Below, piece after piece: positions 15,466-57,715 of a stretch of 64,000 nucleotides of DNA. How positions within the stretch are numbered: position 1 is the first letter of the stretch; each line of letters opens with the position of its first letter. The position numbers were made by a program, and so were the translations under genes. The notes beneath the pieces were generated by a model. It was not told the DNA's origin, did not search any database, and worked only from the letters and a program-made list of their open reading frames with translations. This DNA is from a virus (lineage: Duplodnaviria; Caudoviricetes). The stretch lies in IMG/VR virus record IMGVR_UViG_3300021124_000001. The stretch is one strand, 5' to 3'.

Positions 15466-15999
15466 ATGTCTAATGTATTCAATACTGGTGTTAATCCAGT
15501 CCATTCTGGTATTTACGTGGTCGACCGCGGTGAGAAACTAGGTACACCGTTGCGTTGGTTCGATGCCGACACTGGTGAATGGTCTCGTTGTGAATATACA
15601 ATGGAAGATGTTATTAATGCCAAGGGTAAACCATCGGCACTTGGATTCTTGCCCTGGCGCGGTCCTGTCAAGGTAGCAAAACCAAAACCAGCCGCTGAGG
15701 TTGCATTGGTTAATGATGTACACGTTACAAATACCAATAACCCAGTCGATTTTCCCAAGACTAAAGCCAAACCAGTCAAGGTTGCTAAAGTAAAAGCACC
15801 AAAAGCTGTTAAGGTAGCAAAATCAACTGGTACTAAAGCCACACACCCTGACGGTACTATTATCTTCCGTGCAGACCGTAACAAATACATGGCATGGTTT
15901 GGCGGTAAGCCAGTTGCGGCGCGACCAACTATCGAATCGGCTAAGAATTTTCTAATTAAGAAAGGTATTACTGCCGAAAATATCAATGTAATTGCATAA
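15466..15999 (+). CDS. Protein with K/A/V/P-rich, histone-H1-like linker
   Basis: KAKPVKVAKVKAPKAVKVAK repeats between two small domains. Confidence 0.75.
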   Translation: MSNVFNTGVNPVHSGIYVVDRGEKLGTPLRWFDADTGEWSRCEYTMEDVINAKGKPSALGFLPWRGPVKVAKPKPAAEVALVNDVHVTNTNNPVDFPKTKAKPVKVAKVKAPKAVKVAKSTGTKATHPDGTIIFRADRNKYMAWFGGKPVAARPTIESAKNFLIKKGITAENINVIA

Positions 16000-16063
16000 A
16001 TAGGTGTGGGTCACCACCCACCACAGGTGCACCCACTCTAATATCTATTACGGAGATACCAGC

Positions 16064-16501
16064 ATGAAATATGTATATATTACGGCCGAGTTTAATAAAA
16101 AAATGTGTGAGATTTTTGAAGTTGATTATACGCCGACAGATACAACAAGATTTTTACTAAACAAAACCGAATCCATAATGCCTGTTAACATTGGTATTGA
16201 TATTGGTGTATTTGGTAAAGACCCATGGAACAAAGGTAAAAATACTGGACCATTATCAGAATCACACAGAAAATCATTATCATTGGCGGCAAAAAATTAT
16301 AAGAGAACACCAGAGCATCAAGAAAATAATAGAATCGCAAGGTCAGATTCTTGGTCAGTAACTAATCCAAAAGGTGAAACATTTACTATAAAAAGTATGA
16401 ATCATTTTTGTAAATGTAATCAATTAAATGCAGGACATATGACCTTGGTATCTCAAGGTAAAAGAAAACAACATAAAGGATGGACTTGTTCCAAAATATA
16501 A
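16064..16501 (+). CDS. Homing-endonuclease-like DNA-binding protein (NUMOD3 plus C-terminal HTH-like), no nuclease motif
   Basis: PWNKGK, SESHRK.LS, GKRKQHKGW; conserved hairpin leader at 15995-16063. Confidence 0.8.
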   Translation: MKYVYITAEFNKKMCEIFEVDYTPTDTTRFLLNKTESIMPVNIGIDIGVFGKDPWNKGKNTGPLSESHRKSLSLAAKNYKRTPEHQENNRIARSDSWSVTNPKGETFTIKSMNHFCKCNQLNAGHMTLVSQGKRKQHKGWTCSKI

Positions 16502-16698
16502 TGAACGAACGAATTAAAGAACTTGCTAAACAAGCAACTGTTCATGGCGATACTGAGCATCACCTGGACATACCGTTATGGTACTTGGAGCAGTTCGCCA
16601 AGTTGATTGTGAAAGAATGTACCAATATTGTGTTACACTATACTGATGTTGATGAAGGTGTAGCAGTGGCCAAGAAACATTTCGGAGTTGAAGAATGA
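16501..16698 (+). CDS. MNERI/KFAELIV/HFGVEE family member
   Basis: All three constant blocks present. Confidence 0.8.
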   Translation: MNERIKELAKQATVHGDTEHHLDIPLWYLEQFAKLIVKECTNIVLHYTDVDEGVAVAKKHFGVEE

Positions 16699-16988
16699 AA
16701 ACATCAGATATTAAAAAAGGTATGCGTGTCCGTCTTGCCAATGGTTGGTACGGTACTATGATGGATAATATGCGAGGTACTACCCGGCTTGTAGAGGTAG
16801 AAGGCCATTACACTGAAACCGGGTCGGTATATTCACATGATATTATTGTGGCTCAAACACCTACAGGCTGGGAAGCCGTTGTGCATACTGCAAAAGAATT
16901 GCAGTGCAAAGAAATGAATGAAGCGTTTTTTGGTGGTGGTGAAGAAGACCTACCATTTAAAAATGGTCTAGAATATATGTCAAACTAA
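16695..16988 (+). CDS. Hypothetical protein
   Basis: ATGA-coupled to the HFGVEE junction. Confidence 0.7.
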   Translation: MKTSDIKKGMRVRLANGWYGTMMDNMRGTTRLVEVEGHYTETGSVYSHDIIVAQTPTGWEAVVHTAKELQCKEMNEAFFGGGEEDLPFKNGLEYMSN

Positions 16989-17010
16989 GTATTGAATAAA
17001 GGAATATATT

Positions 17011-17553
17011 ATGCCAAACTGGTGCTCTAATGTTGTGGTTATCTCTCACGTTGAACCATCCAAACTGGATGTTATTCGTGATGCTGTTAAGGTAGCGGCC
17101 GAAGCCTCTACTGGTGAACATTTTTTCAATACTCTGGTGCCACGACCAGTAAATGAAGAAGAAAATTGGTATGAATGGAACGTGACCAATTGGGGTTGTA
17201 AATGGGATGTAGAGCCACAAATTACCGAAGATACTGGTGATTCTATTACTTTGACCTTTGATACCGCATGGGCACCACCAATTCAATTCTATAATGAGAT
17301 GGTCGAGCGTGATTATGAGGTTCGGGCATTCTATGATGAATCTGGTATGGCATTCGCTGGCATTTATGATAATGGCAATGACGATGATTATGAATATGGC
17401 AGTATGGACTCCAGTGAGATTGTAGATAATCTACCTCAAGAATTGGATGAAATGTTTGCTATCTCTGAGCAAAAGGCCGATTGGGAATCTGAAAACGAAG
17501 AACCTGATGTGGATGAAGCACAGGAATGGAACGATTTTGATCCAGAGTGTTGA
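17011..17553 (+). CDS. Api92/YubB-like ferredoxin-fold protein
   Basis: MPNWC.N, NWGCKWD, FDTAWAPP. Confidence 0.8.
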   Translation: MPNWCSNVVVISHVEPSKLDVIRDAVKVAAEASTGEHFFNTLVPRPVNEEENWYEWNVTNWGCKWDVEPQITEDTGDSITLTFDTAWAPPIQFYNEMVERDYEVRAFYDESGMAFAGIYDNGNDDDYEYGSMDSSEIVDNLPQELDEMFAISEQKADWESENEEPDVDEAQEWNDFDPEC

Positions 17554-17563
17554 AAGGAAATAA

Positions 17564-18142
17564 ATGTTTGTCTTTGATGTTGAAACACTTGGTAAGGAAT
17601 CTAGTGCAGTGATATTATCCATGGCGGCCGTATACTTTGACCCGAGGGAAAAACCATCACCAAAAGATATGCGAGACACCGCATTTTTTGCCAAATTCAA
17701 TGTCAATGACCAAATTGCAAGGCTTGGTCGCACCATGACCAGGTCATCCATATCATGGTGGGGTAAACAATGTGACATTGTAAAAAACAAATCATTTAAA
17801 CCAAGCGCCGATGATATTATCATTGATGATGGTGTAGAAGCCATGAGACAATGGTCAAAACAATTTCCAATGCACGACAAATGTTGGGTGTGGGCACGTG
17901 GCAACCTCGACCAATTGGTGCTTGATTCGATTGAAGAAAAACTAGGCATTGAACCTGTGTTTTTCTTTAATCGTTGGCGTGATGTGCGTACCGCATTGGA
18001 CCTATTGAATGGGTCTGTGACTGGTTATGTGGATGTGGATTATCCTGGTTTCAATCCTGCACATCATATACAAAAACATGACCCAATTGATGATTGCATT
18101 TTTGACGCCATGCAGTTACTATACGGAAAGAATGTAGAATGA
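17564..18142 (+). CDS. dexA: 3'-5' exonuclease (DEDDh, T4 DexA-like)
   Basis: FDVETLG, WARG..D, RDVRT, HDPIDDC..D. Confidence 0.85.
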   Translation: MFVFDVETLGKESSAVILSMAAVYFDPREKPSPKDMRDTAFFAKFNVNDQIARLGRTMTRSSISWWGKQCDIVKNKSFKPSADDIIIDDGVEAMRQWSKQFPMHDKCWVWARGNLDQLVLDSIEEKLGIEPVFFFNRWRDVRTALDLLNGSVTGYVDVDYPGFNPAHHIQKHDPIDDCIFDAMQLLYGKNVE

Positions 18143-18360
18143 ACGAACGAATTGAACAAATTATTGAACAGGCATATTGCGATTTACATAAACAGGATCC
18201 AAATAGATTTTTTGGTGAAAGAACTATTGCTAAAAAAGTAGCCGAGTTGATTGTCCAAGATTGTGCCAATTTTGTGCGTGAAACATATGACCACGAGGCG
18301 GCAGAATCTATCGCATGGACAATGGAGATTAATTATGGTTTACACGGAGATTATGCATGA
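18139..18360 (+). CDS. MNERI/KFAELIV family member (diverged)
   Basis: MNERIEQ, KVAELIVQDC. Confidence 0.75.
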   Translation: MNERIEQIIEQAYCDLHKQDPNRFFGERTIAKKVAELIVQDCANFVRETYDHEAAESIAWTMEINYGLHGDYA

Positions 18361-18519
18361 AAACAATTTTTGATAAAGAGTATGATTCGGAATCATTGTG
18401 TGATTTGAGCCGAGATGTCCATGAGGCATTCAACAATGATTTTAATCCAACAGTAGCCGACATACCAAAAGACGAGTATGGCTTCCATGAAGGCCGGTTC
18501 ATTGTCACAATAAAATGGG

Positions 18520-18581
18520 TGTTGTAAATTAACAACAAGCATACCAAAAGTCCTTGACGGACCGTCCAGATGTGCTATAAT
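18520..18581 (+). promoter_or_regulatory. Palindromic box plus sigma70-type promoter
   Basis: Box 18520-18537, TTGACG 18554-18559, TATAAT 18576-18581. Confidence 0.85.
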
Positions 18582-18609
18582 TGCCACTTATTCGATTGAT
18601 TAGGACACT

Positions 18610-18858
18610 ATGAGAACCAAGCAAATTGTTCAAGGGCTTAAAAATAGCCAGCGTATACGTGCCATTGTGAATGGTGTTGGATTTTATACAACCGTACAAG
18701 ATGCCCTGGCTGGTCCATTTACTACGCAAACCTCGGCAGTTAATGTTGTATTGCATGAGATTGGTTCAAATAAATTAACTGGTTTTGGTCGAACCGTTAA
18801 AGTTTATAATAGCTATATGGAAGCTGTTAATTTCAACATTCAAATTGATTTGGTTTAA
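18610..18858 (+). CDS. Hypothetical protein
   Basis: AGGA SD following the promoter. Confidence 0.7.
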   Translation: MRTKQIVQGLKNSQRIRAIVNGVGFYTTVQDALAGPFTTQTSAVNVVLHEIGSNKLTGFGRTVKVYNSYMEAVNFNIQIDLV

Positions 18859-18868
18859 GGAGATAATC

Positions 18869-19321
18869 ATGGGTTTAGATATGTACTTGTCGGCACGTAA
18901 ATATGTTTCTGATTTTGGTTTTAAACCAGAAGATACTAAACTAAATGCATCGATTAAAGAATCATTGGGTTTTGGTCCTAATGAATTTGGCCACATTTAT
19001 GTTGAATTAGAAGTGGCATATTGGCGTAAAGCAAACCAGATTCACGCATGGTTTGTGAATAATGTCCAAGATGGTGAAGACGATTGTGGAAATTATTATG
19101 TTTCCCGCGAACAAATTAGTGAATTGGTTAATCTGTGTTCGGAAGCCATTGATAATAAAGACTCCGAATTATTGGAACCAAAAAGTGGTTTCTTTTTTGG
19201 TTCGACCGATGTGGATGAATACTACTGGGACGAATTGAAACGCACCAAAATCGTCCTCAATCAAATTTTGAATGACAAACGACTGGAAGATTGTTCCTTC
19301 CAATATCATGCGTCCTGGTAA
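18869..19321 (+). CDS. Conserved phage protein (MGLDMYL...YWRKANQIH.WF)
   Basis: Recognisable motif family; AAGGAG SD. Confidence 0.8.
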   Translation: MGLDMYLSARKYVSDFGFKPEDTKLNASIKESLGFGPNEFGHIYVELEVAYWRKANQIHAWFVNNVQDGEDDCGNYYVSREQISELVNLCSEAIDNKDSELLEPKSGFFFGSTDVDEYYWDELKRTKIVLNQILNDKRLEDCSFQYHASW

Positions 19322-19416
19322 TGTTGCATAATAATGATTATAATATAAATAGGTGTGTATCGCGTCCTGGCAGGGACCATACACTCTAGCCATCGAAACA
19401 ATAATCAAGGACTATT

Positions 19417-19827
19417 ATGACCAGCACTAATATGTATATACCCCAGTCGGAATGGGATGCAATGTCCCAAGCATTATCTACCATATTCGATGTAGATTAT
19501 GTACCAAGTAACACCGAACCTTATATTGTAACCCCATTATATTCTAATAATTCTGGACATTTCAATCTAGGCATAAAAAGAACGGCCGAACAAAAAAAAG
19601 CTCAAAGTACTAGACAAATAGGAATGAGATATTCCCATTTACGCAATGAAAAAATTGGATTTGCAAATTCTAAAAATTGGTTAATCACTGATCCTATCGG
19701 TATCACATATAGAGTTTTTAATTTAAGGCAATTTTGTCGAGAAAAAAACTTAAATCAATCTAGTATGACTATGGTAGCCAAAGGCAAATTTAAACAACAC
19801 AAGGGTTGGACCTGTCAGAAAATTTGA
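19417..19827 (+). CDS. Homing-endonuclease-like DNA-binding protein, no nuclease motif
   Basis: NUMOD3-like repeats, NLRQFCRE..L, KGK.KQHKGW; leader at 19344-19416. Confidence 0.8.
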   Translation: MTSTNMYIPQSEWDAMSQALSTIFDVDYVPSNTEPYIVTPLYSNNSGHFNLGIKRTAEQKKAQSTRQIGMRYSHLRNEKIGFANSKNWLITDPIGITYRVFNLRQFCREKNLNQSSMTMVAKGKFKQHKGWTCQKI

Positions 19828-19828
19828 T

Positions 19829-19890
19829 TGTTGTTTTTAAGCAACACCGTCCCGGATTGTCCTTGACTTAGGTGCCGGCCGTGTTACAAT
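19829..19890 (+). promoter_or_regulatory. Palindromic box plus sigma70-type promoter
   Basis: Box 19829-19846, TTGACT 19863-19868, TACAAT 19885-19890. Confidence 0.85.
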
Positions 19891-19922
19891 GGACTCTTAC
19901 TTTGATTGATGAAGGAATTTAA

Positions 19923-20786
19923 ATGTCTGGTATTTTTATGGTTGACGGTAAGTATGCGGCTAATATCAACGGCAAGATTGTAAAACGTGCTAATCGCCGT
20001 GCATTGGAGCGTATGTTAAAAGTAACTGATGCCGTTGTTGCACCCACTGAGTCCAAATTCTCTATTAACCAGCGTTTTGGTTTCGTCCGTGATATGGTTC
20101 AAATGCTTGCAAAAGGCGACCAAGCGTCCGTGGTTGTATCGGGACCTGGTGGTCTCGGTAAGTCACACACCGTATCAGCCGCTTTGACCGATGCCGGCTT
20201 CACTGATCTGTCCGTGCTTGACGAATTGGCTGATGGTGCCGTTGTGCCTGATAAATCTTTCCGTGTTGTTAAAGGTTATTCTACACCAAAAGGTTTATAT
20301 CGTGTTTTGTTTGAGAATCGTAATTCGGTTGTTGTATTTGATGACTGTGATTCGGTGCTCAAAGATCCAGTATCTCTTAACCTATTGAAAGCGGCTCTAG
20401 ATTCATATTCTCGCCGTATTATCTCTTGGCGTGCCGATACTCGTGATGAAGAATTGCCTAATGTGTTTGAATTTAAAGGCCGTGTTGTCTTTATCTCTAA
20501 CCTGTCGTCATCTTCATTGGATCAAGCCATTATCTCACGTTCACTAGCCGTTGACTTGTCTATGACTGCCAAACAAAAGGTTGAACGTATGCGATTCCTG
20601 CTTGACCAAAAAGACTTTATGCCTGAGTATGACAAACAACACAAGGTCGATGCAATGGACCTTATTGCTGAGTTATGCGATAATGTGAAAGAGTTGTCTT
20701 TGCGTACACTGATTCAGGTAACAAAGATTCGTAAATCTGCCGGTGCAAACTGGAAAGATTTGGCTGAATATGCTATTGTTGGTTGA
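19923..20786 (+). CDS. AAA+ ATPase
   Basis: Walker A GPGGLGKS, Walker B VVFDDCD, FISN, AIISR. Confidence 0.88.
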   Translation: MSGIFMVDGKYAANINGKIVKRANRRALERMLKVTDAVVAPTESKFSINQRFGFVRDMVQMLAKGDQASVVVSGPGGLGKSHTVSAALTDAGFTDLSVLDELADGAVVPDKSFRVVKGYSTPKGLYRVLFENRNSVVVFDDCDSVLKDPVSLNLLKAALDSYSRRIISWRADTRDEELPNVFEFKGRVVFISNLSSSSLDQAIISRSLAVDLSMTAKQKVERMRFLLDQKDFMPEYDKQHKVDAMDLIAELCDNVKELSLRTLIQVTKIRKSAGANWKDLAEYAIVG

Positions 20787-21279
20787 TTTTTTAAAGGATT
20801 TATTATGTTTGAACAAACTGTAATGCAAAAAATTGGACATTTATTGAAAGAAGGCGAAACTGCTGAATTTCATAATGGTACATTGTTTCTCAATTCAGGC
20901 CGACCAACGGCCAATGATGTTTATATTGAATTGTGTAACATTTATCGTAAACGATTTATAAATTTCAATATTGTTACTGAAGGTGAATATGCGTTTGACT
21001 TTACTGCGTGAGACTACAAAGTGGGCCGATGGTTCGGCCACCAACTTCATATATGCCTTTGTGGATAAACCGGGTAAACGGTTAGGTAATGCTGTTGGTT
21101 ATATCAATCACCTATCTGATGAGTATAAGGAATTTAGTAAGCCAATGGTGATTGATATGAAGGATAGGACCTTTGTAGAGGTAGGTAATATCAAATTTGA
21201 ATTGGATACACCTATTCATTGAAAGCGGCACACCGCTATCTTATACACCATTTTTAAAATTGTCAAGGTAACTTTTGGT

Positions 21280-24918: not shown

Positions 24919-24922
24919 GCCC

Positions 24923-24951
24923 TTGACAAATGCCACAAAGTGGTATACAAT
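24923..24951 (+). promoter_or_regulatory. Sigma70-type promoter
   Basis: TTGACA-N17-TACAAT. Confidence 0.7.
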
Positions 24952-32925: not shown

Positions 32926-33188
32926 TGCTTTCTATCTTTCACTATTGGTCGGCCAAAGAACGATTGGCTGAACACGAAAAGACCATCATGATGCTTGGTG
33001 GTGAATCTGAATGCCAACCAATGATTCTTGCACAGCGGGATTTCATAAAAATGGAATTGGAATACTATCGCAAACCAGCAAAAATTTGGTCGATAATTTT
33101 ATGCGTACTTCCAGTTATTTTTATTTTTCTTGCACCATTTGGATATGGTGTAATAAGTAACATTGTGATGAATTGCTGCATCAAGTAA
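32925..33188 (+). CDS. Hypothetical membrane protein overlapping the endonuclease 3' end
   Basis: TAATG coupling; C-terminal hydrophobic stretch. Confidence 0.55.
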
Positions 33189-33695
33189 ACTTCCAAAAAT
33201 AATGCCATTCGGATCAATAACACCTTTTGCATTTGGATTTTTTGATGCCGTCAATCCATAACAAGGATTATTTACACCAGAAGTCCTAATCGATTGTAAG
33301 AGTTTTCTTTGAGTATTATTTTCCCAGTGTGATTTTACAATTTTTTTAAGTTTAATTCTCACATCATTTCTACGGCATGGATTTTTGTCACCATATAATT
33401 TATTTTTTTCGGCAACAACAATACCAGTTCCGCCATCACCCCCATCAGTACGATTTCTAAGTATACCAGTTTTTTTATCTTTTCTTCCCCACCAGCGGAT
33501 ATATCTGCGTTCAAGAGCAAAAGCACCAATTTCGGTAAGATTACCTTCCATAATAACGATTTTGGATTTATCTTTTGGTGGATGTATTACATCATTTTTT
33601 GTGTGTTTCCATGCTCTATCTTCTTTACCTTTACCAATGTAATAAGGTGAACCGTTTTTACGGAGATAGGCATAGATGTAATAAATACTTGACAT
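33099..33695 (-). mobile_element. Free-standing GIY-YIG homing endonuclease
   Basis: [29 protein letters not shown]; leader and late promoter at 33696-33772. Confidence 0.88.
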
Positions 33696-33790
33696 GTGCT
33701 GTGTCCTTATGTTAGAATTTGACATAGAGTAGGTGGGAATTCCCAGTTCCGTGACCTACACCCTTATTTATATCATTTGAAAGGTAAATT

Positions 33791-33967
33791 ATGATTAAAA
33801 GACCCGCAACTTACAAAATGTCCAAGGCATTGAAATCATCTTTGCGCTTAGGCCGTTACAAAGACAAAGATCAACGTGCCGAATGGAAAAAAGCCATGGT
33901 CAATGCTGAGATTTATGCTAACTCAGTTGAACGTCACATCATGGGTAAGCCAGGTGGAAACGACTAA
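33791..33967 (+). CDS. Small basic protein (58 aa)
   Basis: AAGGT SD, clean ORF. Confidence 0.6.
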   Translation: MIKRPATYKMSKALKSSLRLGRYKDKDQRAEWKKAMVNAEIYANSVERHIMGKPGGND

Positions 33968-33996
33968 ATATTTGTCCGTTATTTGAAAGGAAAATT

Positions 33997-34389
33997 ATGT
34001 CCCTATTTATAGAAGTCCATTCTCTTGAGAAGAATTGCAAAGTGATTATTAATCTTGAAACCGTTATGGAAATTGCACCGCTTGCTTCAGGTGGTTGTGC
34101 ATTGTTCTTCCCTGATGCGGCTGCTGTTGGTGGTAAGACATCTATGAAGGTATCCGACTCTTATGCATTGTTCCATCAGTTTGTCCTTGAGACTGTTTCA
34201 CCTGAAATGATTGCAAAGCGTATCGAAAGTATGCCTAAGCAACAATTGGAACAACATCCACGATTCATTTCTGATGCTGAGACTACTCCACGCCCACAAG
34301 TTGAACAGGAAGCCGCTAAAGCAGAACAGAAGCGTGGACCAGGCCGTCCAAAGTCAGTTATCGGCACAACCTCGTCATCCCTAGGTTAA
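33997..34389 (+). CDS. Hypothetical protein with AT-hook-like C-terminus
   Basis: KRGPGRPK. Confidence 0.7.
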   Translation: MSLFIEVHSLEKNCKVIINLETVMEIAPLASGGCALFFPDAAAVGGKTSMKVSDSYALFHQFVLETVSPEMIAKRIESMPKQQLEQHPRFISDAETTPRPQVEQEAAKAEQKRGPGRPKSVIGTTSSSLG

Positions 34390-34436: not shown

Positions 34437-35900
34437 ATGACATTAAAGAGTTTTACTAAGTTTACCGCTAACCTAAACGAGGCGGCCAAACCTAAAAAAG
34501 CATCAAACCACGCAAATTTCGACAAAAAAATCTTAATTATTGGCTATGGCTCAGTCGGACAAGCCATGTTGCCATTAGTTCTAAAGCACATCACCAATGA
34601 TCCAAAGAAAGTTACTGTGATTGAGAAAGACAATCATGGTAAACTTTTCCGTAAGCGTAACGCAAATAATGGTGTAAAGTATGTAAAGAAAGAGATTCTA
34701 CCAAACAATTTGGAAGCCACTCTTAAAGCATATACTGAGCCTGGCTCATTCATTATTGACGTTTCACTTAACATTGCCGCACATGCCATCATTGAATGGT
34801 GCTTACAGAATGATGTAATGTATGTAAACACATCATTGGAACGCTGGGGGCACATGCAGGACGAGAAAATACCTAATATGGCTGATCGTACTCTGTACCA
34901 CACTCACAAACACATCCGTGAGATTGCCGCTAAGTATCCTAATGGTCCTACAATTGTTGCTACCGGTGGTGCTAACCCTGGTCTTGTAACATATCTGACA
35001 AAAGCCGCACTATTAAAGATTGCTGAGAAAGCTGGTCGTAAGGTTGAGGCTCCAACTGATAAAGAAGGTTGGGCACAATTGATGAAGAAAATGGGTGTGG
35101 AAGTTGTACACATTGCTGAACGTGACACACAGGTTATTAATCAGCCTAAACTAAAAGATGAATTCACTAACACATGGTCTTGTGAGGGATTCTGGGCTGA
35201 AGGCCGTGCACCCGCTGAGATGGGTTATGGTACACATGAACCAAAAGAACTTGAGGGTGGTACAATTCAAGGCCATGCGGCATTCTTACATCAACCTGGT
35301 CTAACTGTATTGGTCAAGTCATGGGTGCCAAACGGTGGTCCATACAATGGTTTTTTGGTACAACACTCAGAAGCCATCACAATGTCTGAATACTTTGAGA
35401 CTGCTGATGGTAAGTTCCGTCCTTCAGTTTATTACTGCTATCAACCAACTGATGCCGCTATTGCATCGGTGCATGAGTTGCGTGGTAAAGAATTGGATAT
35501 GCAGAAAGAACACCGTATCGTCAAAGATGAAATCGTTGGCGGTATGGATGAACTAGGTGTCCTATTGATTTGCAAGAATGGTAAATCATACTGGCACGGT
35601 TCACAGTTAGACATCAAGGAAGCACGTAGATTGATTCCTGGTGAGAATGCAACATCTTTACAGGTCGTTGCTACAATTCTTGGTGAAATGATGTGGGCTA
35701 TTCAGAATCCACGCCGTGGCTATGTTGAGCCTGAATCATTACCACATGAGTTTGTGCTAGAACATGCATTACCTTATCTTGGTCCAGTTCCATTTGTGGA
35801 AACCACATGGCGCCCTGAAGAAGATAAGAATGAGTTGTTCAAGCGCCCATTTGACAAGAAACATCCAAACGCACTATCTAATTTTAGAGTCTGGTGCTAA
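34437..35900 (+). CDS. hss: Homospermidine synthase
   Basis: IGYGSVG, GANPGLV, HIAERDTQ, NTWSCEGF..EG, HSEA, RP.VYY.Y.P, G.DELGVL, NATSLQV. Confidence 0.93.
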   Translation: MTLKSFTKFTANLNEAAKPKKASNHANFDKKILIIGYGSVGQAMLPLVLKHITNDPKKVTVIEKDNHGKLFRKRNANNGVKYVKKEILPNNLEATLKAYTEPGSFIIDVSLNIAAHAIIEWCLQNDVMYVNTSLERWGHMQDEKIPNMADRTLYHTHKHIREIAAKYPNGPTIVATGGANPGLVTYLTKAALLKIAEKAGRKVEAPTDKEGWAQLMKKMGVEVVHIAERDTQVINQPKLKDEFTNTWSCEGFWAEGRAPAEMGYGTHEPKELEGGTIQGHAAFLHQPGLTVLVKSWVPNGGPYNGFLVQHSEAITMSEYFETADGKFRPSVYYCYQPTDAAIASVHELRGKELDMQKEHRIVKDEIVGGMDELGVLLICKNGKSYWHGSQLDIKEARRLIPGENATSLQVVATILGEMMWAIQNPRRGYVEPESLPHEFVLEHALPYLGPVPFVETTWRPEEDKNELFKRPFDKKHPNALSNFRVWC

Positions 35901-37528: not shown

Positions 37529-38164
37529 ATGTTTTTGGTCAACAAATACACTGAAAGATATAATTCTATTGTGCATAAAGCCAAAAATAGAAAGTTGGTC
37601 GAGGGTGTTTACTATGAGAAACACCACATTCTACCAAAATCTATGGGTGGCAAAAACAACAAGTGCAATTTAGTGAATTTAACACCAAAAGAACATTATG
37701 TCGTGCATCACCTTTTAACAAAAATGTGTGAAGGTGATAATTCTAGAAAAATGAATTATGCTTTTTGGAAATTAAACATACGTTATAAAGATGAAAAAAG
37801 AACTAATATAAATTTTTCAACATTTGAAAAAATACGTGAAAAACAAAAAGAAAATATGTCAAAAACCATGACTGGTAGATTTGTCTCAGAAAAAGCCAGA
37901 GAATCTGTTAGAAATTCCAATAGACTAAGGGTTGGAGATAAACACCCCTTATTTGGTAAAAAAAGACCAAACCATGTTATTGAAGCCAGCAGAAAAGCAA
38001 ACTTGGGTAATAAGTATTGTTTAGGTAGAAAAGTTAGTGAAGAAACTAGAAAAAAAATGTCCGAATCCCAAAAAAATGTAGAAAAATTTGATTGTGGTAT
38101 ATGTGGTCGGAAAATTTCAGGAAAAGGTAATTTCACCCAACATACTAGGTCACATAAAATATAA
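37529..38164 (+). mobile_element. HNH homing endonuclease with NUMOD3 repeats
   Basis: EKHHILPKS.GG.N...NLV.LT.KEH...H; SEETRKKMSES. Confidence 0.88.
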
Positions 38165-44908: not shown

Positions 44909-44909
44909 A

Positions 44910-46466: not shown

Positions 46467-46594
46467 AAGTCAAAAAGTTAGTTCAAAAATTAAACCGGGC
46501 CGAGTTACAACATAACTTGGAAAAGGCTAAAAAGTTTTGGATGAAGTTATTGAAGAAGTCGCTTAAAGGTAAGCACACCGAATCGGTGCGCTAA
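46463..46594 (+). CDS. 43-aa basic peptide
   Basis: ATGA coupling and GAGG SD. Confidence 0.5.
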   Translation: MKVKKLVQKLNRAELQHNLEKAKKFWMKLLKKSLKGKHTESVR

Positions 46595-46597
46595 TAA

Positions 46598-46922
46598 TGA
46601 TAGTAAACTTGGTATAAGAAAAGTGTTCTGGACGTGGGTTCGACTCCCACCAGGTCCACCAAAGTATATTAGAGTCCGTAAATACCCTTCAGTGGGCTCA
46701 AGGAACGGTTTAGAAGATGTTGCAATACATCACATAGTATACTTTAATGGGCCTGCATTGGTTTCGACAGGGTAAAGAGTAAGATATTCAGGCTATCCGT
46801 CAGAGTTGACGTAAACACTAAATCAAAATAAATGCAAACGATGAAAAGTTCCGCATTGCTGCCTAATTAAAGGTTGCTAGGGTTTGCTCGTAGGTTTTCC
46901 TAGTAACAGAATAAGCCTACTA
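46598..46922 (+). ncRNA. ssrA: Circularly permuted (two-piece) tmRNA
   Basis: T-arm GTGGG-TTCGACT-CCCAC plus CAGGTCC-A-CCA (ends 46661) precedes GGGCCTG...GGTTTCGAC (46749); G3-U70 pair; tag ANDEKFRIAA* at 46834-46866; outer ends approximate. Confidence 0.93.
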
Positions 46923-46947
46923 CTATGTTTAACTTAAAGGAGTTTTA

Positions 46948-47502: not shown

Positions 47503-47536
47503 TTTTGGTGGTTCTCTAAAAACCACCATATTTTTT
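47503..47536 (+). terminator. Putative terminator
   Basis: TGGTGGTT...AACCACCA followed by T-tract. Confidence 0.6.
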
Positions 47537-47546
47537 AGGAAGATAC

Positions 47547-48318: not shown

Positions 48319-48542
48319 TGCCTACTAAAGATGAAATCCGTGAGTTCTCTTTGAAGATTGAGGAGATTGCCGATCTGTATAATGTTCATTGTATGGAAGC
48401 AATCGTCCAGTATTGTGAAGAATCGGGTATCGAGGTAGAAGTTGCCGCAACCTTGATTTCTTCACACCTCAAAGCACGTATCAAAGAAGAAGCTCAATCT
48501 GTTAATCTGATTAAAAAGTCGAGCCGGTTACCTATTGTATGA
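48318..48542 (+). CDS. 33: Late transcription co-activator gp33
   Basis: FS..IE, EAIV.YCEE..IE.E, LK..I..EA...N, RLPI; synteny with 59 and 32. Confidence 0.88.
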
Positions 48543-49215
48543 TATAATATTCATCCGGTTTTCTTTTTAATTTGGAAGAAATATTGGACTTTGTACAATT
48601 CATAAATTCGGCCGCTGTTGTTACTGATTCAAATAATCCAAAAGGTGTCATTATTCTTTTTCTCTTTTTCGGTATAGGTTTGCCTTTTTTCGAATTTGAT
48701 AAATTCTGTTTATGGTGTTCTGAAAAAATCATCCCTTTTCTACCGTTTGAAATATTAGTTTTATGTTCCGAACTTTTTGGTCCTAACATTTTTTTGATAG
48801 AGTTCTCCGTGTGTTTAAAACCTAAATTGAAACCTTTCATTCCCTTATTCCACGGAGATTTGTTATAGTGGATACTATTCATACCTGAAATTTTATTTAA
48901 GGTTTCTTGTGTATGTTTATAATTCTCTACACCATCACCTCCATCGGTTTTATTTCTTAATATTCCTGTGCCTATGTCAATTCTACCATACCATCTTATC
49001 ATTCGGCGTTCCAAAGCTAGTGCTCCAACTTCAGTTAAATTGCATTCAACAATTATGACTCGTGATTTATCTTTTGGTGGCTTAATTTCTTTTTTAGATT
49101 TTAACCAAGCTCGTGTTTTTTGACCTTTTCCAAAATAATATGGTGTATTATCTGGACGTAGATATGCATAAACATAAGATCCGGGTGGTGTGTTGGTTTT
49201 GGAATAAATATCCAT
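48532..49215 (-). mobile_element. Free-standing GIY-YIG homing endonuclease with NUMOD3
   Basis: [24 protein letters not shown]; leader at 49216-49281. Confidence 0.88.
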
Positions 49216-49287
49216 GCTGACATTCCTTTACAATGTTAGAGTGGGTGCAAGCGGGAACTTGGCGACCCACACTTATTTATAATAGAT

Positions 49288-49893
49288 ATGACAGAAAATA
49301 CTGGTTTCGAAGCGTACAAACTTTATTCTGCAATGAAGTTGCACTTCACCTCTAAATCCTATGATTATTTCCGATATAACGGAAAAACTAATGTGTCACA
49401 GGATAACTTTTTAAAGAACAAAGCAAAATACCAATTCTACAAATTGTCCCGTAAGTATTCACTGGACGAATTGCGTAACTTTTATTTGGCCAACTTCATT
49501 TACGGTGATTCGACTTGGGTTGGTGAAATGACCGGACCAGAAGGTGAAGTTGCATATAAAAAGTGGCAAAAAACCAACCAGAGCTTGACCTATGTGTTTG
49601 AGAATGATATACTCGGTCTCATAGGAAATGATTCACCAGAACAGATGTTGATTGTCAAAGATGGTCAACATCCAATTCTTCTCCGTGAAGTGATGTCTGG
49701 TACAATCTCAATTGAAACGATGGTTATACTGAATGATATAATGAATTTCTTTCCCATGTGGAATAGAAAGATAAGTGATGATATTATTTGGCCCAATTGG
49801 CGCCTAAAAAGTGAAAAGTATACACCATTCGTTACCTATGATAAGGTAAAATTTAAAAACATTTTGAAAGAAGTGGTTACAGAACATGCATAA
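49288..49893 (+). CDS. 59: Helicase loader gp59
   Basis: YKLY.A.KLHF...YDYF.Y.GK, IS.ET. Confidence 0.9.
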   Translation: MTENTGFEAYKLYSAMKLHFTSKSYDYFRYNGKTNVSQDNFLKNKAKYQFYKLSRKYSLDELRNFYLANFIYGDSTWVGEMTGPEGEVAYKKWQKTNQSLTYVFENDILGLIGNDSPEQMLIVKDGQHPILLREVMSGTISIETMVILNDIMNFFPMWNRKISDDIIWPNWRLKSEKYTPFVTYDKVKFKNILKEVVTEHA

Positions 49894-50380: not shown

Positions 50381-50451
50381 ATATGGATATATTATGTACA
50401 ATGTGGATAATCCGTTAATATTTTTTAATACTCCGTTTATAAAGGAAAATC

Positions 50452-51345: not shown

Positions 51346-51369
51346 ACCCTCTCGAATTCGATAGGTTAA

Positions 51370-51394
51370 GAACCCGCCTAGTGCGGGTTTTTTA
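51370..51394 (+). terminator. Rho-independent terminator between convergent genes
   Basis: AACCCGC-ctagt-GCGGGTT-TTTT. Confidence 0.85.
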
Positions 51395-52867: not shown

Positions 52868-52868
52868 T

Positions 52869-54293: not shown

Positions 54294-54375
54294 CTACGTT
54301 TTTTTCTTATAAATAATTGTGTATCGCCAGACTCTCACCTCCGCATACACTCTAACACGAAAGAACCGTATCAGC

Positions 54376-54978
54376 ATGACTATTTATCATATAATATATA
54401 AAACTATCCACAAAAACGGAAACTACTATTATGGTCGCCATTCCACCGATAACTTAAATGATGGATATTTGGGTTCTGGTAAATGGGTGAAAAGCATAAA
54501 AAATAAAAAAGAACTTACCCGAGAAATAGTGGAATATGCGGATTCCATAGAGAAATTAAAACACTTAGAGGAAAAATACCTAGATGAACACTACGGTAAA
54601 CCAAATTGTATGAATTGGTCTAAAGGATCACACGGTTTCAAAAAAGGTGATCCTGCAACCAAGCAAATACCTAGAAGGGTGCAGTTGAAGTTGGTAAAAG
54701 AAGGTAAACACCACCTATTAAGTGGTGACGTACAGAGACAACAGTGGAAAAAATATAAAGAATTGGGAATAAATCCTATAACAAATATTCAAAATGTTAC
54801 CGAAAGAGCAAATAGACTAATCAAAGAAGGTAAACACAATTTTCAAAACACATCAAGTCGTGAAAAAGTGGTTTTACATCAAAAAACTGAAAGAGTGTGT
54901 CCACATTGTGGTAAAAATGGAAAAGGCTCAATCATGTTTAGACACCATTTTGAAAAATGCAAATTCAAATCATCTTGA
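54376..54978 (+). mobile_element. Free-standing GIY-YIG (Seg-like) homing endonuclease with C-terminal Zn finger
   Basis: IIYKT..YYYGRHST..DGYLGSG; CPHCG...HF.KC; leader at 54308-54375. Confidence 0.88.
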
Positions 54979-55161
54979 ATTTTGTCGCTCTTTAATCTTG
55001 GCATTTTCTTCTTCAATATATTGAGCAAGCATACTAACGTAAATTTCACGCTCCCATGGCATCATATTTTCTAGCTCCGTCAAACTATACTTGTGATGCT
55101 GAATCAATGCAAAGTTGGTTGTATAATAGTTCCTTAATGTATCATGACGGAAGATTACCCG
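54970..55161 (-). CDS. 51: gp51-like frame, probably reached by -1 frameshift from gp26
   Basis: HDTLRNYYTTNFALIQHHKYSLTELENMMPWEREIY; no ATG or SD before the conserved part; T TTT TTC at 55167-55161. Confidence 0.8.
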   Translation of the reverse strand, partial: RVIFRHDTLRNYYTTNFALIQHHKYSLTELENMMPWEREIYVSMLAQYIEEENAKIKERQNSR

Positions 55162-55877: not shown

Positions 55878-55896
55878 TATATCTCCTTCAAATCAA

Positions 55897-56568
55897 TTAG
55901 TAATAAGACTCAAGTTTTGGTCCTTCTTGCAATATTACATTCTTCTCGTTAACAATGTTATTATCTGTAAATCCGGTTAGGCCGCCAGTTGAATTAAGAA
56001 CTTGTGTAATTCCATACTGTAGTGCACTGTCACCAAATTTCTGTATAGAGTTGTTTTGCCAGTATCTGTAAGCGAAGACAACAGTTAATTTGTGGTGTCC
56101 ATCATTAGACCAATCCAAGTCCAATTGGTTGACTGAAACTGGAAACGCATCGATCAGGTTGATGGAGTATGTTAATTTGTTATCAACACCATACTGATTG
56201 ACTGTCAAGGTAGAGATGTAATCATTTCTATAGTTGAAATCAAAAGACATTGTTGGGTTGATGTATTCCATCCATGCATCAAAGAAAATCTTCTCAGACA
56301 TATCATCCGAAACAATGAATGTCATCTCAGACTCATTGTAGTTCGATTGGTAAGCATGTTTTTCGATTGGGTTTGAACCGATTTTCTGGTCTGCTGTTGC
56401 AAAGGTTCTGCTAGGTAACTGAGCAGACTCACAGCGTAATGTCAAATTTCTACTTGTTGACAAATAGTACAACATTGGCAGCGGAGCAGGAATAGTAACA
56501 TCAAACCTATTTGGTCTTGCAATATCGGTCTTAAACGAACCAAGAAAATCTGTAATACTTGATGGCAT
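55897..56568 (-). CDS. Tail-tube-like/baseplate tube initiator (gp54/gp19-like)
   Basis: ARPNRF.V, C.SAQLP, FD.W, DAFP, V.FAYRYW. Confidence 0.8.
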   Translation of the reverse strand: MPSSITDFLGSFKTDIARPNRFDVTIPAPLPMLYYLSTSRNLTLRCESAQLPSRTFATADQKIGSNPIEKHAYQSNYNESEMTFIVSDDMSEKIFFDAWMEYINPTMSFDFNYRNDYISTLTVNQYGVDNKLTYSINLIDAFPVSVNQLDLDWSNDGHHKLTVVFAYRYWQNNSIQKFGDSALQYGITQVLNSTGGLTGFTDNNIVNEKNVILQEGPKLESYY

Positions 56569-56570
56569 TT

Positions 56571-57194
56571 TTATTCTTCTGAGTTAAAGTGTTTCATGTG
56601 ATCTTTCCACTCCAATACCGAATCTCTCCACACTTTTTGTGGTTTTGCACCTCTAAATTGCTGTATTGGTAACATTGTTGCCACATCCCACTCATTCGGT
56701 TGGATTGTCAACATTCTGGAACGAACATGATTAAACAGGTATCGTTTCAGACAAGGCCTAAACTCCGCATACTTCTTGGATGCTTCCAGGATGTCGTAGG
56801 ATATTCTCATACGTCTAATGTCGTTCTCTGCTGTCAACTGTGCATATTTCATCAGTTTGGACAAGAACGCAATACGGAACTTGACTGGTAAATAGTGCAG
56901 ATTCAGACCCATGAAACCATCATTATATCTTTCCAAAATCAAAACCATTGGGAATCTATCCCAATATGGCATGTCTGCCTTGGTTTTAGGATCATAATAG
57001 AAACAATACATCATTCCAATACGAAACTGGGATGTCTGTCTAAATGTTTCTTTATTGATTGTAGATGGTATTGTTGACGGCCTTTTGATCTCGTCAATCT
57101 TTTCCTGCAACCAAGCCACAGCATCACGAGACATAGTTTTATGTCCTGCCGCCGCTTTTTGTTCTGCTAGTGAGGTGAGTTTGGATGTGGTCAT
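56571..57194 (-). CDS. 2: DNA end protector gp2
   Basis: YDPK.K..MPYWD.FP, GLNLHYLP, KRYL..HVRS. Confidence 0.9.
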   Translation of the reverse strand: MTTSKLTSLAEQKAAAGHKTMSRDAVAWLQEKIDEIKRPSTIPSTINKETFRQTSQFRIGMMYCFYYDPKTKADMPYWDRFPMVLILERYNDGFMGLNLHYLPVKFRIAFLSKLMKYAQLTAENDIRRMRISYDILEASKKYAEFRPCLKRYLFNHVRSRMLTIQPNEWDVATMLPIQQFRGAKPQKVWRDSVLEWKDHMKHFNSEE

Positions 57195-57265
57195 TTCTTT
57201 ATAAATAAGTGTGTATCGCCGGTGGTCAGACCGCATACACCCTAACACGAAAGAACCGTATCAGT

Positions 57266-57715
57266 ATGATTATTTATAAGCTATCTCAAAAAGAATTTGA
57301 TTCTTTAAATTTATCACTTTCCAAAGCATTCGATGTCGCATACCAAGAAATGAACGTTGGTGACCAAATTTTTGAAACTTCATCAGTTCCATCCAGTAAC
57401 TGCATATTGAGAGGCGAATCTAGTCCTAGGTGGCGTAAAAAACATTCAGAAGAATCTAAGAAAAAAATGGCGGCCGCAAGATTAGGCAAAAAAGCCACCG
57501 ATGAAACAAGAAAGAAGATGAGTTTAGCTCAATTGGGTAAAAAACAAAGGCCTGAATCTATAGTAAAAATGTTGGAAACTAGAAAAGGTAAACCGGCAGG
57601 CATGAAAGGTAAAAAGAAAATAACTACAGTTTGTCCACACTGTGGTCTAATAGGTGCTAGAAGCTCACTGAAAAGGTATCATTTCGACAACTGCAAATCT
57701 TTAAGAAATTCCTAG
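57266..57715 (+). CDS. Homing-endonuclease-like NUMOD3/Zn-finger protein, no nuclease motif
   Basis: HSEESKKKM, ETRKKMS, CPHCG...RYHFDNC; leader at 57200-57265. Confidence 0.8.
   Translation: MIIYKLSQKEFDSLNLSLSKAFDVAYQEMNVGDQIFETSSVPSSNCILRGESSPRWRKKHSEESKKKMAAARLGKKATDETRKKMSLAQLGKKQRPESIVKMLETRKGKPAGMKGKKKITTVCPHCGLIGARSSLKRYHFDNCKSLRNS

Follow-up and report, generated by a model that had tools for sequence, protein, structure and literature searches.

A compact structured leader precedes six endonuclease-like genes in the window, the 64,000-nt stretch of virus record IMGVR_UViG_3300021124_000001 analysed here, and its pairing rules fit an RNA of the strand opposite to the nuclease gene. 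From the fold conserved on this opposite strand, an antisense control RNA of a kind so far undescribed is predicted. An earlier note on this DNA had proposed that the leader is a portable cis-regulatory module, and this is supported by sequence comparison: the leader behaves as an independent, covarying module, and the genes downstream encode nucleases from three or more catalytic superfamilies.

Module plan and its copies in the window

The six leaders of the earlier note have all been located, and one common plan is found in 6/6, with the outer-stem types as reported there (GTGGGT in two, GTGTAT in three and GTAGGT in one). From 5' to 3', the order is (C/T)ATAAATA, 3-5 nt, a 6-bp outer stem, a C-R-C / Y internal loop, a 4-bp inner stem with a loop of 6-8 nt, YCTA, a second helix bearing the SD, CAG(C/T), ATG and TAT(T/G)TAT. 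As a cassette of about 80-95 bp accompanying free-standing homing endonuclease genes, this is NATAAATA, 3-5 nt, the bipartite hairpin H1, the 8-bp helix H2, CAGC, 5 nt and TATTTAT. In H2, CTA plus 5 nt is paired with 5 nt plus CAG, and the SD lies in the loop and 3' arm. The copies, the genes downstream and two comparison genes are as follows.

15995..16076, + strand: module copy 1 (covariance model 71 bits); CATAAATA 15995-16002, H1 16006-16036, H2 16038-16062, ATG 16064, heptamer TATGTAT 16070-16076
16064..16501, + strand: ORF 1, endonuclease-like, 145 aa; PHROG 2081/314, C-terminal DNA-binding part only
19344..19437, + strand: module copy 2 (54 bits); TATAAATA 19344-19351, H1 19355-19384, H2 19386-19424, heptamer TATGTAT 19431-19437; ATG (19417) upstream of CAGC
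19417..19827, + strand: ORF 2, endonuclease-like, 136 aa; PHROG 2081, C-terminal part only
33681..33772, - strand: module copy 3 (covariance-model match); TATAAATA 33772-33765, H1 33759-33729, H2 33727-33699, ATG 33695, TATTTAT 33687-33681 (AATAAATA on + strand)
33099..33695, - strand: ORF 3, GIY-YIG-like homing endonuclease, 198 aa; PHROG 15526/314
49204..49281, - strand: module copy 4 (91 bits); TATAAATA 49281-49274, H1 49270-49241, H2 49239-49217, ATG 49215, TATTTAT 49210-49204 (AATAAATA on + strand)
48532..49215, - strand: ORF 4, GIY-YIG-like homing endonuclease, 227 aa; homologous to ORF 3
54308..54387, + strand: module copy 5 (covariance-model match); TATAAATA 54308-54315, H1 54319-54350, H2 54352-54374, ATG 54376, TATTTAT 54381-54387 (GATAAATA on - strand, 54388-54381)
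54376..54978, + strand: ORF 5, homing endonuclease, 200 aa; PHROG 314
57200..57277, + strand: module copy 6 (covariance-model match); TATAAATA 57200-57207, H1 57211-57240, H2 57242-57264, ATG 57266, TATTTAT 57271-57277; heptamer region reads as full TATAAATA on - strand, 57278-57271
57266..57715, + strand: ORF 6, NUMOD3 endonuclease-like, 149 aa; PHROGs
37529..38164, + strand: HNH/NUMOD3 endonuclease gene, no module, co-oriented with neighbours (comparison)
62737..63354, + strand: GIY-YIG-like/NUMOD3 endonuclease gene, no module, co-oriented with neighbours (comparison)

A covariance model made from 114 copies and run on the 64 kb with filters off gave exactly these six matches (E 4e-16 to 3e-8) and no module ahead of the two comparison genes (37529 and 62737), which had been described as lacking the leader. 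The core pattern is present well beyond chance, with five exact occurrences in the window and eight matches with two mismatches allowed, against 2.3 expected from shuffles. All six ORFs (6/6) are endonuclease-like by PHROGs, with ORFs 1, 2 and 6 matching in the DNA-binding part only. The downstream proteins had been assigned to different families; this does not hold for all six, since ORFs 1 and 2 are homologous, as are ORFs 3 and 4. Leaders 5 and 6 are 83% identical, while their proteins are unrelated except for a 28-aa stretch.

Covariation, distribution and genomic context

The earlier note had called for a covariance model, a comparison with Rfam and a search for empty sites. The search pattern left free pairs 3 and 4 of the outer stem and pairs 1-3 of the inner stem; these are Watson-Crick in 117-118 of 118 copies, and each shows 3-4 pair types. 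Since the copies share ancestry, counts of cells, here and below, exceed the number of independent events. Pairing is observed in 97-100%, compared with about 59% after partner shuffling, and the covariation claimed for the outer stem is confirmed at the pattern-free positions. Twelve extra copies outside the pattern carry compensatory changes at positions that it fixes. Both H1 and H2 covary; H1 is nearly without wobble pairs, and TCRC and CTCTA are conserved in sequence. Rfam contains no described motif matching the module.

With a degenerate core pattern, the module was found on at least 119 IMG/VR contigs, the source phages being uncultured, T4-like and mostly lake-derived. It precedes HNH, GIY-YIG, NUMOD3 and TnsA-like genes (downstream ORF classes include NUMOD3 39, HNH 13+6+2, GIY-YIG 12+1 and TnsA-like 2), and over 130 genes, from different nuclease families, share the cassette. 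Prokaryote genomes totalling 596 Gb gave 77 pattern matches, and the true modules among them are ten loci, all on MAG contigs.

Fully classified cassettes are antisense to both neighbours in 45 cases and co-oriented in 19, as assigned by a crude longest-ORF heuristic for neighbour orientation. Where the module is missing, most endonuclease-like ORFs are co-oriented (9 vs 3, p=0.02). When a cassette lies antisense between host genes, the start codon of the neighbour is in most cases 0-35 nt past the outer promoter. In the window, a gp59-like loader gene (+) starts at 49288, 6 nt past the copy 4 promoter, a gp29-like late gene (-) at 54293, 14 nt from the copy 5 promoter, and a gp2-like gene (-) at 57194, 5 nt from the copy 6 promoter; a small divergent + ORF near copy 3 starts at 33791. 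Whole cassette 5 (about 54299-54985) is absent from the relative L011, where the flanking - strand genes overlap by ATGA, and was inserted exactly at this stop/start overlap of two late genes. In L035, a solo leader has remained after clean deletion. Comparison of filled and empty sites shows the module to mark the 5' edge of compact mobile cassettes. The other idea of the earlier note, a DNA end-signal, received no support from any test here.

Strand bias of the fold and the in-ORF heptamer

Over 18 pairs, canonical pairing reaches 97.0% on the antisense strand and 87.5% on the sense strand. For the inter-promoter segment, 103/108 copies have the more stable fold in antisense (-19.5 vs -14.5 kcal/mol), and z-scores against dinucleotide shuffles are -2.05 in antisense and -1.05 in sense, the antisense value being the lower one in 96/108 copies (p=4e-15). 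At the third H2 pair, 113/116 copies have A.C, which is G·U when read on the opposite strand; in the H1 internal loop, the middle pair is GC in 70, AT in 20, AC in 28 and GT in 0, and unique H2 arm combinations comprise 37 A.C-type cells vs 6 of G.U type. Sense-strand H2 is weak (mean -1.75 kcal/mol) and has conserved A.C mismatches, which speaks against masking of the SD in the mRNA by the second hairpin, as proposed earlier. H1 alone is about equal on the two strands (-10.3 kcal/mol sense, -10.7 antisense). The antisense bias is alike in divergent and tandem contexts. Since copies with variant heptamers (TATATAT, TACTTAT) retain the same bias as exact copies, the fold is not demonstrably tied to the heptamer promoter.

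At codon 2, where 11 different amino acids occur, 71/71 genes have T as the third base (37.6 expected, p=2e-20); in the heptamer codons, ATT usage is 85% vs 43% elsewhere and TAT usage 96% vs 74%. Judged by codon usage, these values show that the in-ORF TATTTAT is selected as nucleotides and not as codons, in line with the earlier note. The CAGC-N5-heptamer spacing is kept in 72/111 copies, and in 7/7 where the ATG is upstream of CAGC. The heptamer had been thought to be intact in antisense copies and T-to-G in sense copies; this is true in the window only, exact TATTTAT being found in 42/55 divergent and 21/31 tandem copies (p=0.45), and with equal integrity in both orientations promoter rescue is not the whole reason for its conservation. 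The antisense 8-mer starts with T in 18/73 copies vs 68/94 for the outer promoter, so the inner motif may be a weaker promoter, or none.

Outside modules, ATAAATA is 12-fold enriched at -70 to -12 of long ORFs (79/257 occurrences, p=4e-56), and in the window it also precedes other genes, one of them gp48-like. The leaders of ordinary late genes in these phages are short (18-35 nt) and unstructured. The start position of T4-type late promoters was used to place the nuclease mRNA start relative to TAAATA. On the antisense strand, H1' with UAUUUAUA after it does not form a canonical terminator.

Proposed antisense control, alternatives and known systems

The reading that we favour, at about even odds, is that the portable cassette carries two facing late promoters, the inner of which would make a structured antisense RNA over the nuclease ribosome site and would often feed the host neighbour. 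The outer NATAAATA would be a T4-type late promoter, with the nuclease mRNA starting at or within the first H1 bases, and TATTTAT, which is NATAAATA on the opposite strand, a second late promoter facing it. The G of GCUG, about 6 nt downstream, would be the first base of the inner transcript, which would fold H2' first (8 bp, anti-SD in the loop) and then H1' and would be fully complementary to the nuclease 5' UTR, SD and AUG. Nuclease expression would be kept low by this RNA and by head-on promoter interference. In cassettes lying antisense between host genes, the majority, the inner promoter and folded leader would restart late transcription into the host gene; if so, a nuclease gene can insert within a late operon at little cost to the phage. 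From co-oriented cassettes, the outward transcript would enter the upstream host gene antisense.

A T4-style late-only translation gate appears unlikely. Here, AUAAAUA of read-through RNA would pair with UAUUUAU (codons 2-4), close a three-way junction round H1 and H2 and bury the AUG, and transcripts from the late promoter, without the 5' arm, would be translated, like those of I-TevI, segB, Aeh1 mobE and T4 genes e and soc. Such gating is established in T-even endonuclease genes (PMC2988022) and was proposed earlier for metagenomic endonuclease leaders (PMC2677866); the two heptamers are exactly complementary, TATTTAT is nucleotide-conserved, and when sense read-through RNAs were modelled, 25/53 had the closing helix P0 in their minimum-energy fold (central pair mean probability 0.46). 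However, P0, seven A-U pairs around a multiloop of about 75 nt, is marginal, sense H2 is weak (-1.75 kcal/mol), and the fixed CAGC-N5 spacing and antisense-biased pairing (A.C 113/116; 97% vs 87.5%) are left unexplained. Sense read-through is not expected for most cassettes because most (45 vs 19) are antisense to their neighbours, and TATTTAT is equally conserved in both contexts. Of the two roles that the earlier note offered for TATTTAT, that of an outward late promoter agrees better with the fixed spacing, the antisense-biased fold and the mostly antisense placement; the promoter-pairing helix appears in about half of predicted minimum-energy folds.

A purely sense mRNA leader without antisense function, in which H1 would be a 5'-terminal stabiliser like the ompA 5' stem-loop, H2 would present the SD and TATTTAT would be an A/U-rich translation-initiation enhancer or merely a favoured N-terminus, is rather improbable. 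The TAAATA-to-H1 gap of 3-5 nt does make a T4-type transcript begin at or within the first H1 bases, SD-to-ATG spacing is normal, and H1 folds alike on both strands; but mismatches are nearly all A.C with sense-strand G.U nearly absent, the antisense z-score is twice as strong, ordinary late genes do without such structure, and an enhancer needs no exact promoter complement at a fixed CAGC distance regardless of the ATG position. The least probable reading is a DNA-level element, either a homology patch for recombinational swapping of endonuclease cassettes, like PeSLs, or an operator for endonucleases or another protein, like I-TevI autorepression at its late promoter (precedents in PMC4122927 and PMC2988022). 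Leaders more similar than their genes (copies 5 and 6), the solo leader of L035, the nearly wobble-free H1 and conserved TCRC and CTCTA would suit it. Yet both stems vary freely while pairing is kept, which argues for structure over sequence recognition, the nucleases are of unrelated families with different DNA-binding modules, and A.C at 113/116 is a mismatch in any DNA hairpin, sensible only as RNA G.U; a recombination role may follow from the shared module and not be its selected function.

Among known systems, T-even homing endonuclease leaders combine a late promoter with an RBS-sequestering hairpin (I-TevI, I-TevII, I-TevIII, segB, Aeh1 mobE; PMC2988022). The module shares with them a TATAAATA-type promoter directly upstream of the ORF, structured RNA around the SD, complementarity of the promoter sequence to a downstream segment, and restraint of a selfish nuclease as presumed purpose. 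Unlike theirs, its conserved helices are downstream of the promoter and so would be in the late transcript too, its SD helix is weak in sense with the fold best in antisense, its promoter complement, at constant spacing from CAGC, falls within codons 2-4, and a single cassette serves different nuclease families. In metagenomic 'fractured genes', Dassa et al. (2009; PMC2677866) described conserved hairpins ahead of free-standing endonucleases, found in 15/16 endonuclease 5' UTRs and in ten of these including TATAAATA. The hairpins are common to GIY-YIG and Vsr-like endonucleases, are kept after endonuclease loss and were read as sense-strand translational attenuators. Metagenomic phage-like loci and endonuclease 5' UTR hairpins are common to both; the module is set apart, by description and not by motif sequence, in its facing promoter, antisense bias and covariation statistics.

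RNA-OUT/RNA-IN of IS10 is a cis-antisense control of a mobile-element gene. Antisense RNAs opposite endonuclease genes do exist in T4-like phages, as CfrI of cyanophage S-PM2, about 225 nt, lies opposite a homing endonuclease gene and also covers psbA (PMC2984593); model R1 found no module copy in S-PM2. An outward promoter within the 5'-terminal part of the selfish gene and a stably folded antisense RNA over the translation start, predicted here, resemble IS10 and CfrI, whereas both predicted promoters of the module would be T4-type late, about 75 bp apart. PeSL/PmSL, the promoter-stem-loop cassettes of T4-like phages, have sigma-70-like early or Mot-type middle promoters in PeSLs, with the stem-loop as terminator (PMC2839356, PMC4122927). 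They are likewise short repeated promoter and hairpin cassettes dispersed in T4-like genomes, with variable genes and modular exchange; unlike PeSLs, the module combines late-type motifs with a bipartite hairpin that is no terminator, has an SD-bearing second helix and is strictly linked to nuclease genes.

Copies of the leader module and the genes behind them

The earlier note had described six leaders of one plan in the window, and both their positions and the plan are correct; exact coordinates have been determined. Each module is a cassette of about 80-95 bp, in which a promoter-like outer motif is followed by a bipartite hairpin (H1), a second helix that contains the SD (H2), CAGC, five nucleotides and the heptamer TATTTAT at codons 2-4 of the ORF. 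R1, a covariance model built from 114 module copies, was run with filters off and matches exactly these six leaders in the window (54-91 bits). There is no R1 match 5' of either of the two co-oriented endonuclease genes (37529 and 62737), which had been said to lack the leader.

Leader copies in the window and two neighbouring genes
near 15995 (+), leader copy 1, followed by ORF 1 (16064-16501)
near 19344 (+), leader copy 2, followed by ORF 2 (19417-19827)
near 33772 (-), leader copy 3
near 49281 (-), leader copy 4
49288, gp59-like helicase loader
50452, gp32-like SSB
near 54308 (+), leader copy 5
near 57200 (+), leader copy 6, followed by ORF 6 (57266-57715)

All six downstream proteins are homing-endonuclease-like according to PHROGs, as proposed; the further claim that they belong to different families holds only in part, since ORF 1 is a homologue of ORF 2, and ORF 3 of ORF 4. 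Identity between leaders 5 and 6 is 83%, and their proteins share just a 28-residue stretch. Matches of ORFs 1, 2 and 6 (136-149 aa) are confined to the DNA-binding part (NUMOD3) of homing endonucleases, with no catalytic domain detected, and these ORFs may be degenerate or may be derivatives keeping DNA binding alone. The 3' end of ORF 6 overlaps by 15 nt the 3' end of a TnsA-like (PD-(D/E)xK) nuclease-fold gene at 57701-58138 (-) (Pfam E=6e-26), which is conserved in relatives and has no leader module; its start codon, probably at 58138, falls within a CATAAATA motif (58136-58143 (+)) 5' of the divergent gp48-like gene (ATG 58171).

For searching IMG/VR, we used a degenerate pattern in which two outer-stem pairs and the entire inner hairpin were left unconstrained. 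This pattern matches at least 119 contigs, which gave 118 distinct copies, and 12 more copies, all breaking the pattern, were obtained with an nhmmer profile. When 596 Gb of prokaryote genomes were searched with the same pattern, 77 matches were found, 67 of them by chance. The true modules, at 10 loci, are without exception on MAG contigs with titles naming lake data sets; the contigs are probably wrongly binned phage contigs, and they gave no reliable host clue. A typical leader had no credible blastn hit in INPHARED, and the module was thus found in no cultured phage there. The ORFs 3' of the module belong to NUMOD3 (39), HNH families (13+6+2), GIY-YIG (12+1) and TnsA-like PD-(D/E)xK (2) groups, and because several nuclease families follow it, the leader is a module independent of nuclease family, as had been suggested. 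A search of Rfam 15 with the whole window at the gathering score matched tmRNA alone, and for two leaders at E<=10 there was nothing beyond chance snoRNA/miRNA matches.

Covariation, strand bias and promoter-like motifs

The covariation that the earlier note saw in six leaders is borne out over the 118 pattern-derived copies, including the pairs left free by the pattern. The unconstrained outer-stem pairs are Watson-Crick in 118/118 and 117/118 copies, with three and four pair types, and inner-stem pairs 1-3 in 118/118, 117/118 and 118/118 copies, with three to four pair types. Permuting the 3' partners gave about 59% pairing versus the 97-100% observed, and the off-pattern copies have compensatory changes at positions that the search pattern had fixed. 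The second hairpin is also present, and is longer than had been described: CTA plus five bases pair with five bases plus CAG, which accounts for the invariance of CTCTA and CAGC. Over all copies, the H1 loop takes two mutually reverse-complementary forms, a C-GGCA-A type (39) and a T-TGCC-G type (38); since the two are about equally common, K-G-C-M-like loops are present on both strands.

Where pairing is not Watson-Crick, the pair is nearly always A.C or C.A, corresponding to G.U on the opposite strand. The third pair of H2 is A.C in 113/116 copies; pairs 4 and 5 are of A.C type in 30 and 42 cells and G.U in one at most. In the H1 internal loop, the central base and the single 3' base combine as GC 70, AT 20, AC 28 and GT 0. 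Over 18 pairs, canonical pairs amount to 97.0% on the antisense strand and 87.5% on the sense strand, where H2 is weak (mean -1.75 kcal/mol) and has conserved A.C mismatches. The segment between the two motifs is more stable in antisense in 103/108 copies (-19.5 versus -14.5 kcal/mol). Corrected for composition by dinucleotide shuffles, the z-score is -2.05 for antisense and -1.05 for sense, and is lower for antisense in 96/108 copies (p=4e-15). This bias is equal for copies with divergent and with tandem upstream neighbours. These results point to the strand antisense to the nuclease gene as the one that folds, and the predicted antisense segment, as drawn by prediction and comparative analysis, spans the SD and AUG of the nuclease by construction.

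In six of six window copies, NATAAATA is located 61-73 nt 5' of the ATG. ATAAATA occurrences outside the modules are enriched 12-fold at 12-70 nt 5' of long ORFs of the contigs studied (79/257, p=4e-56) with a peak at 18-35 nt, and in the window the motif is also found 5' of the gp48-like gene and several others; because of this enrichment, the sequence of the outer motif fits a T4-type late promoter. No conserved -35/-10 pair was found in the alignment of copies, and a sigma-70 scan gave no enrichment (26 found versus 30.5 expected). Transcription in T4-like phages starts about six bases past the late-promoter motif. With such a start, the first base of the sense RNA would be at the edge of H1 or just within it, and that of an antisense RNA would be the G of GCUG, which is one base ahead of H2' (H1' and H2' being the antisense-strand forms of the helices). 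A simple terminator scan, which is blind to bipartite stems, called no terminator-like site at any module, H1' plus UAUUUAUA included. Gene 33997 (+) has the promoter/complement arrangement in miniature at its start (33963-34011), with a ACTAAATA motif 27 nt 5' of the ATG, CTATTTATA immediately after ATG TCC and no hairpin; the reverse strand reads TATAAATA (34011-34004).

The heptamer TATTTAT is conserved as a nucleotide element. An M-x-I-Y N-terminus is found in 71/110 ORFs, HNH and GIY-YIG genes alike. All of these (71/71) have T at the third position of codon 2, where usage in the rest of the genes predicts 37.6 (p=2e-20), and 11 different amino acids are encoded by this codon. Within the heptamer, ATT is used at 85% versus 43% elsewhere and TAT at 96% versus 74%. 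The distance from CAGC to the heptamer is 5 nt in 72/111 copies and is kept in 7/7 copies in which the start codon is shifted 5' of CAGC; since the spacing holds when the start codon moves, the constraint is on the distance to the helix and not on the reading frame. Read on the opposite strand, the heptamer is a NATAAATA motif at codons 2-4, kept at synonymous sites and at fixed spacing, and the first base of the 8-mer is T in 18/73 antisense cases versus 68/94 for the outer motif. The earlier note had tied the integrity of TATTTAT to orientation; we found no such association, and it is equally well kept in tandem and divergent copies.

Insertion sites and candidate mechanisms

Neighbour orientation was called by an ORF-length heuristic, and the upstream neighbour is divergent for 59 copies and tandem for 33. 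Of the cassettes for which both neighbours could be classified, 45 are antisense to the two genes and 19 run in the same direction. Among endonuclease-like ORFs that lack the module, co-orientation prevails at 9 versus 3, compared with 18 versus 33 where the module is present (p=0.02), and the leaderless window genes at 37529 and 62737 agree with this trend. The outer motif is often 0-35 nt from the start codon of the divergent host gene, as in the following cases.

Distance from outer motif to start codon in the window
gp2-like gene, 5 nt
gp59-like gene, 6 nt
gp29-like gene, 14 nt
small ORF (33791), 18 nt

Empty sites, proposed earlier as a way of mapping element ends, were located by blastn of cassette flanks among related loci. 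The site of cassette 5 is filled in the window and empty in the related contig L011, and the comparison is clean. The gp29-like gene of L011 overlaps a small gene through ATGA. This junction has received, in the window, an antisense insert of about 690 bp, made up of the module and the ORF with about 9 nt ahead of them and about 12 nt behind; the final codons of the small gene are rewritten by it, and UAUUUAUAAGAAAAAAACGUAG is left 5' of the gp29-like AUG. The gp29-like protein used as a query for related loci found no relatives, and the empty-site alignment of another contig, L117, with the window was too diverged for mapping ends. Contigs L035 (3177-3435) and L033 (3650-4560) are close relatives of each other, with flanks 97-99% identical, and in L035 the endonuclease ORF has been cleanly lost from codon 3 to near the stop, so that a solo leader (promoter, H1, H2 and ATG) remains and TATTTAT is absent.

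Free-standing homing endonucleases are the chief mobile elements of T4-like phages, and to our knowledge their insertion between essential genes without disruption is understood case by case only (T4, Aeh1). Judging from sequence, we consider the chances about evenly balanced that the cassette is two-faced, with facing late promoters, an antisense RNA limiting the nuclease, and a leader for the host gene in the antisense-inserted majority. The outer late promoter would produce the nuclease mRNA, and a late promoter within codons 2-4 would fire toward it, producing a structured RNA with H2' (anti-SD in its loop) and then H1'. This RNA would be complementary to the entire translation initiation region of the nuclease, which would be limited both by it and by head-on promoter interference. 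In the antisense-inserted majority, the same transcript would also serve the downstream host late gene as its 5' leader, restoring expression otherwise disturbed by the insertion. There is a precedent in T4, where endonuclease ORFs contain embedded host-gene promoters (PMC2988022). Three results argue against the two-faced cassette: copies with a variant heptamer, tested for loss of the antisense fold bias, retain it; no canonical terminator is found 3' of H1'; and TATTTAT is kept equally in tandem and divergent copies.

Chief among the rival explanations is a gate of the classical T4 kind: in RNA from read-through transcription, a helix between AUAAAUA and UAUUUAU would conceal the AUG. T-even endonuclease genes have late promoters with regulatory hairpins upstream (PMC2988022), and the module resembles them in its late-type TATAAATA motif immediately 5' of the endonuclease ORF. 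The T-even promoter lies inside the inhibitory 5' arm, which frees late transcripts from the structure; such a geometry would apply here to the long-range AUAAAUA/UAUUUAU helix only, and H1 and H2 lie 3' of the predicted start and would therefore be present in late transcripts. The very stable T-even hairpin hides the SD and AUG of longer transcripts (early or middle); the local sense H2 of the module is weak, and the long-range helix stands beside the AUG in 25/53 sense minimum-energy folds (35/53 in antisense). Such a gate is physically plausible and may operate alongside the antisense mechanism, but it leaves unexplained the antisense fold bias, the fixed CAGC spacing and the conservation of the heptamer in antisense-inserted cassettes. 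A leader acting as a sense-strand stabiliser, with no antisense role, fits less well, and so does a DNA-level recombination or operator element.

Returning to the antisense mechanism, a more specific form of it is possible, and we hold it tentatively. The conserved object may be an antisense RNA gene of about 80 nt with two hairpins and a late promoter in codons 2-4, heading >100 endonuclease genes of at least three unrelated superfamilies and serving as a nuclease brake and a portable host-gene promoter/leader, that is, an 'insulator' that makes antisense landing in essential late operons of T4-like phages non-lethal. If so, the module would represent an RNA family not described before, and the tolerance of homing endonuclease cassettes would follow a new principle.

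Several known systems of a similar kind have been compared. PMC2677866 describes metagenomic endonucleases of two families with conserved hairpins and TATAAATA upstream, and the comparison with these is one of published descriptions. PeSL/PmSL cassettes are promoter-stem-loop units with early or middle promoters (PMC4122927). Identity with them was rejected, since the conserved upstream element is NATAAATA, there is no sigma-70-like -35/-10 pair and no terminator is called at H1; their stem-loop is an intrinsic terminator with a G+C stem and a T-run, whereas H1 of the module is followed on the sense strand by CTCTAAC. Cyanophage S-PM2 has one verified antisense RNA (CfrI) opposite an endonuclease gene (PMC2984593), and a search of S-PM2 with R1 gave no match. 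In RNA-OUT-type control, an outward promoter lies within the 5' end of the gene under control; the motif on the opposite strand at codons 2-4 would be the candidate for such a promoter. As in that type of control, a stable antisense fold is predicted, also by comparison, over the translation start of the target. Full-text literature searches found no description of the module. A shared covarying two-helix module, antisense-biased in its fold and placed between facing late-promoter motifs, is described for none of the compared systems.

A single modular covarying control cassette serves >130 nuclease genes, which belong to different families and come from uncultured lake phages. For annotating metagenomic phage contigs, it is a useful marker of late promoters and of mobile nuclease cassettes. 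Should the antisense RNA exist, it would constitute a widespread new family of phage regulatory RNAs and would account for the predominantly antisense insertion of the cassettes, and the long-standing question why selfish nucleases do no harm would become testable by simple synonymous and compensatory mutants.

The phage genome around the cassettes

The window has a G+C content of 37% and most of its genes are on the + strand. It contains T4-type baseplate genes (gp48-, gp5- and gp29-like) and gp2-like and tail-tube-like genes, as well as NrdB, CobS, CobT-like and PhoH genes. Because the baseplate protein has <30% identity to any cultured phage and INPHARED contains no megablast match to a 6-kb stretch (15000-21000), we assign the window to an uncultured, distant member of the T4-like myoviruses. 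The phage carries a tmRNA gene at 46524-46931 (+) (RF01850, 125 bits; RF04321, 134.7 bits); it is of the betaproteobacterial type with two pieces (permuted), which hints at a betaproteobacterial host. At 34437-35900 (+), a saccharopine-dehydrogenase-family protein of 487 aa (Pfam PF03435, PF16653) is encoded, with a AATAAATA motif 34 nt 5' of the gene; this may be an auxiliary gene of the homospermidine or carboxynorspermidine synthase type. A G+C island is present at 10001-12000 (0.454 versus about 0.37 elsewhere), in which long ORFs are scarce.
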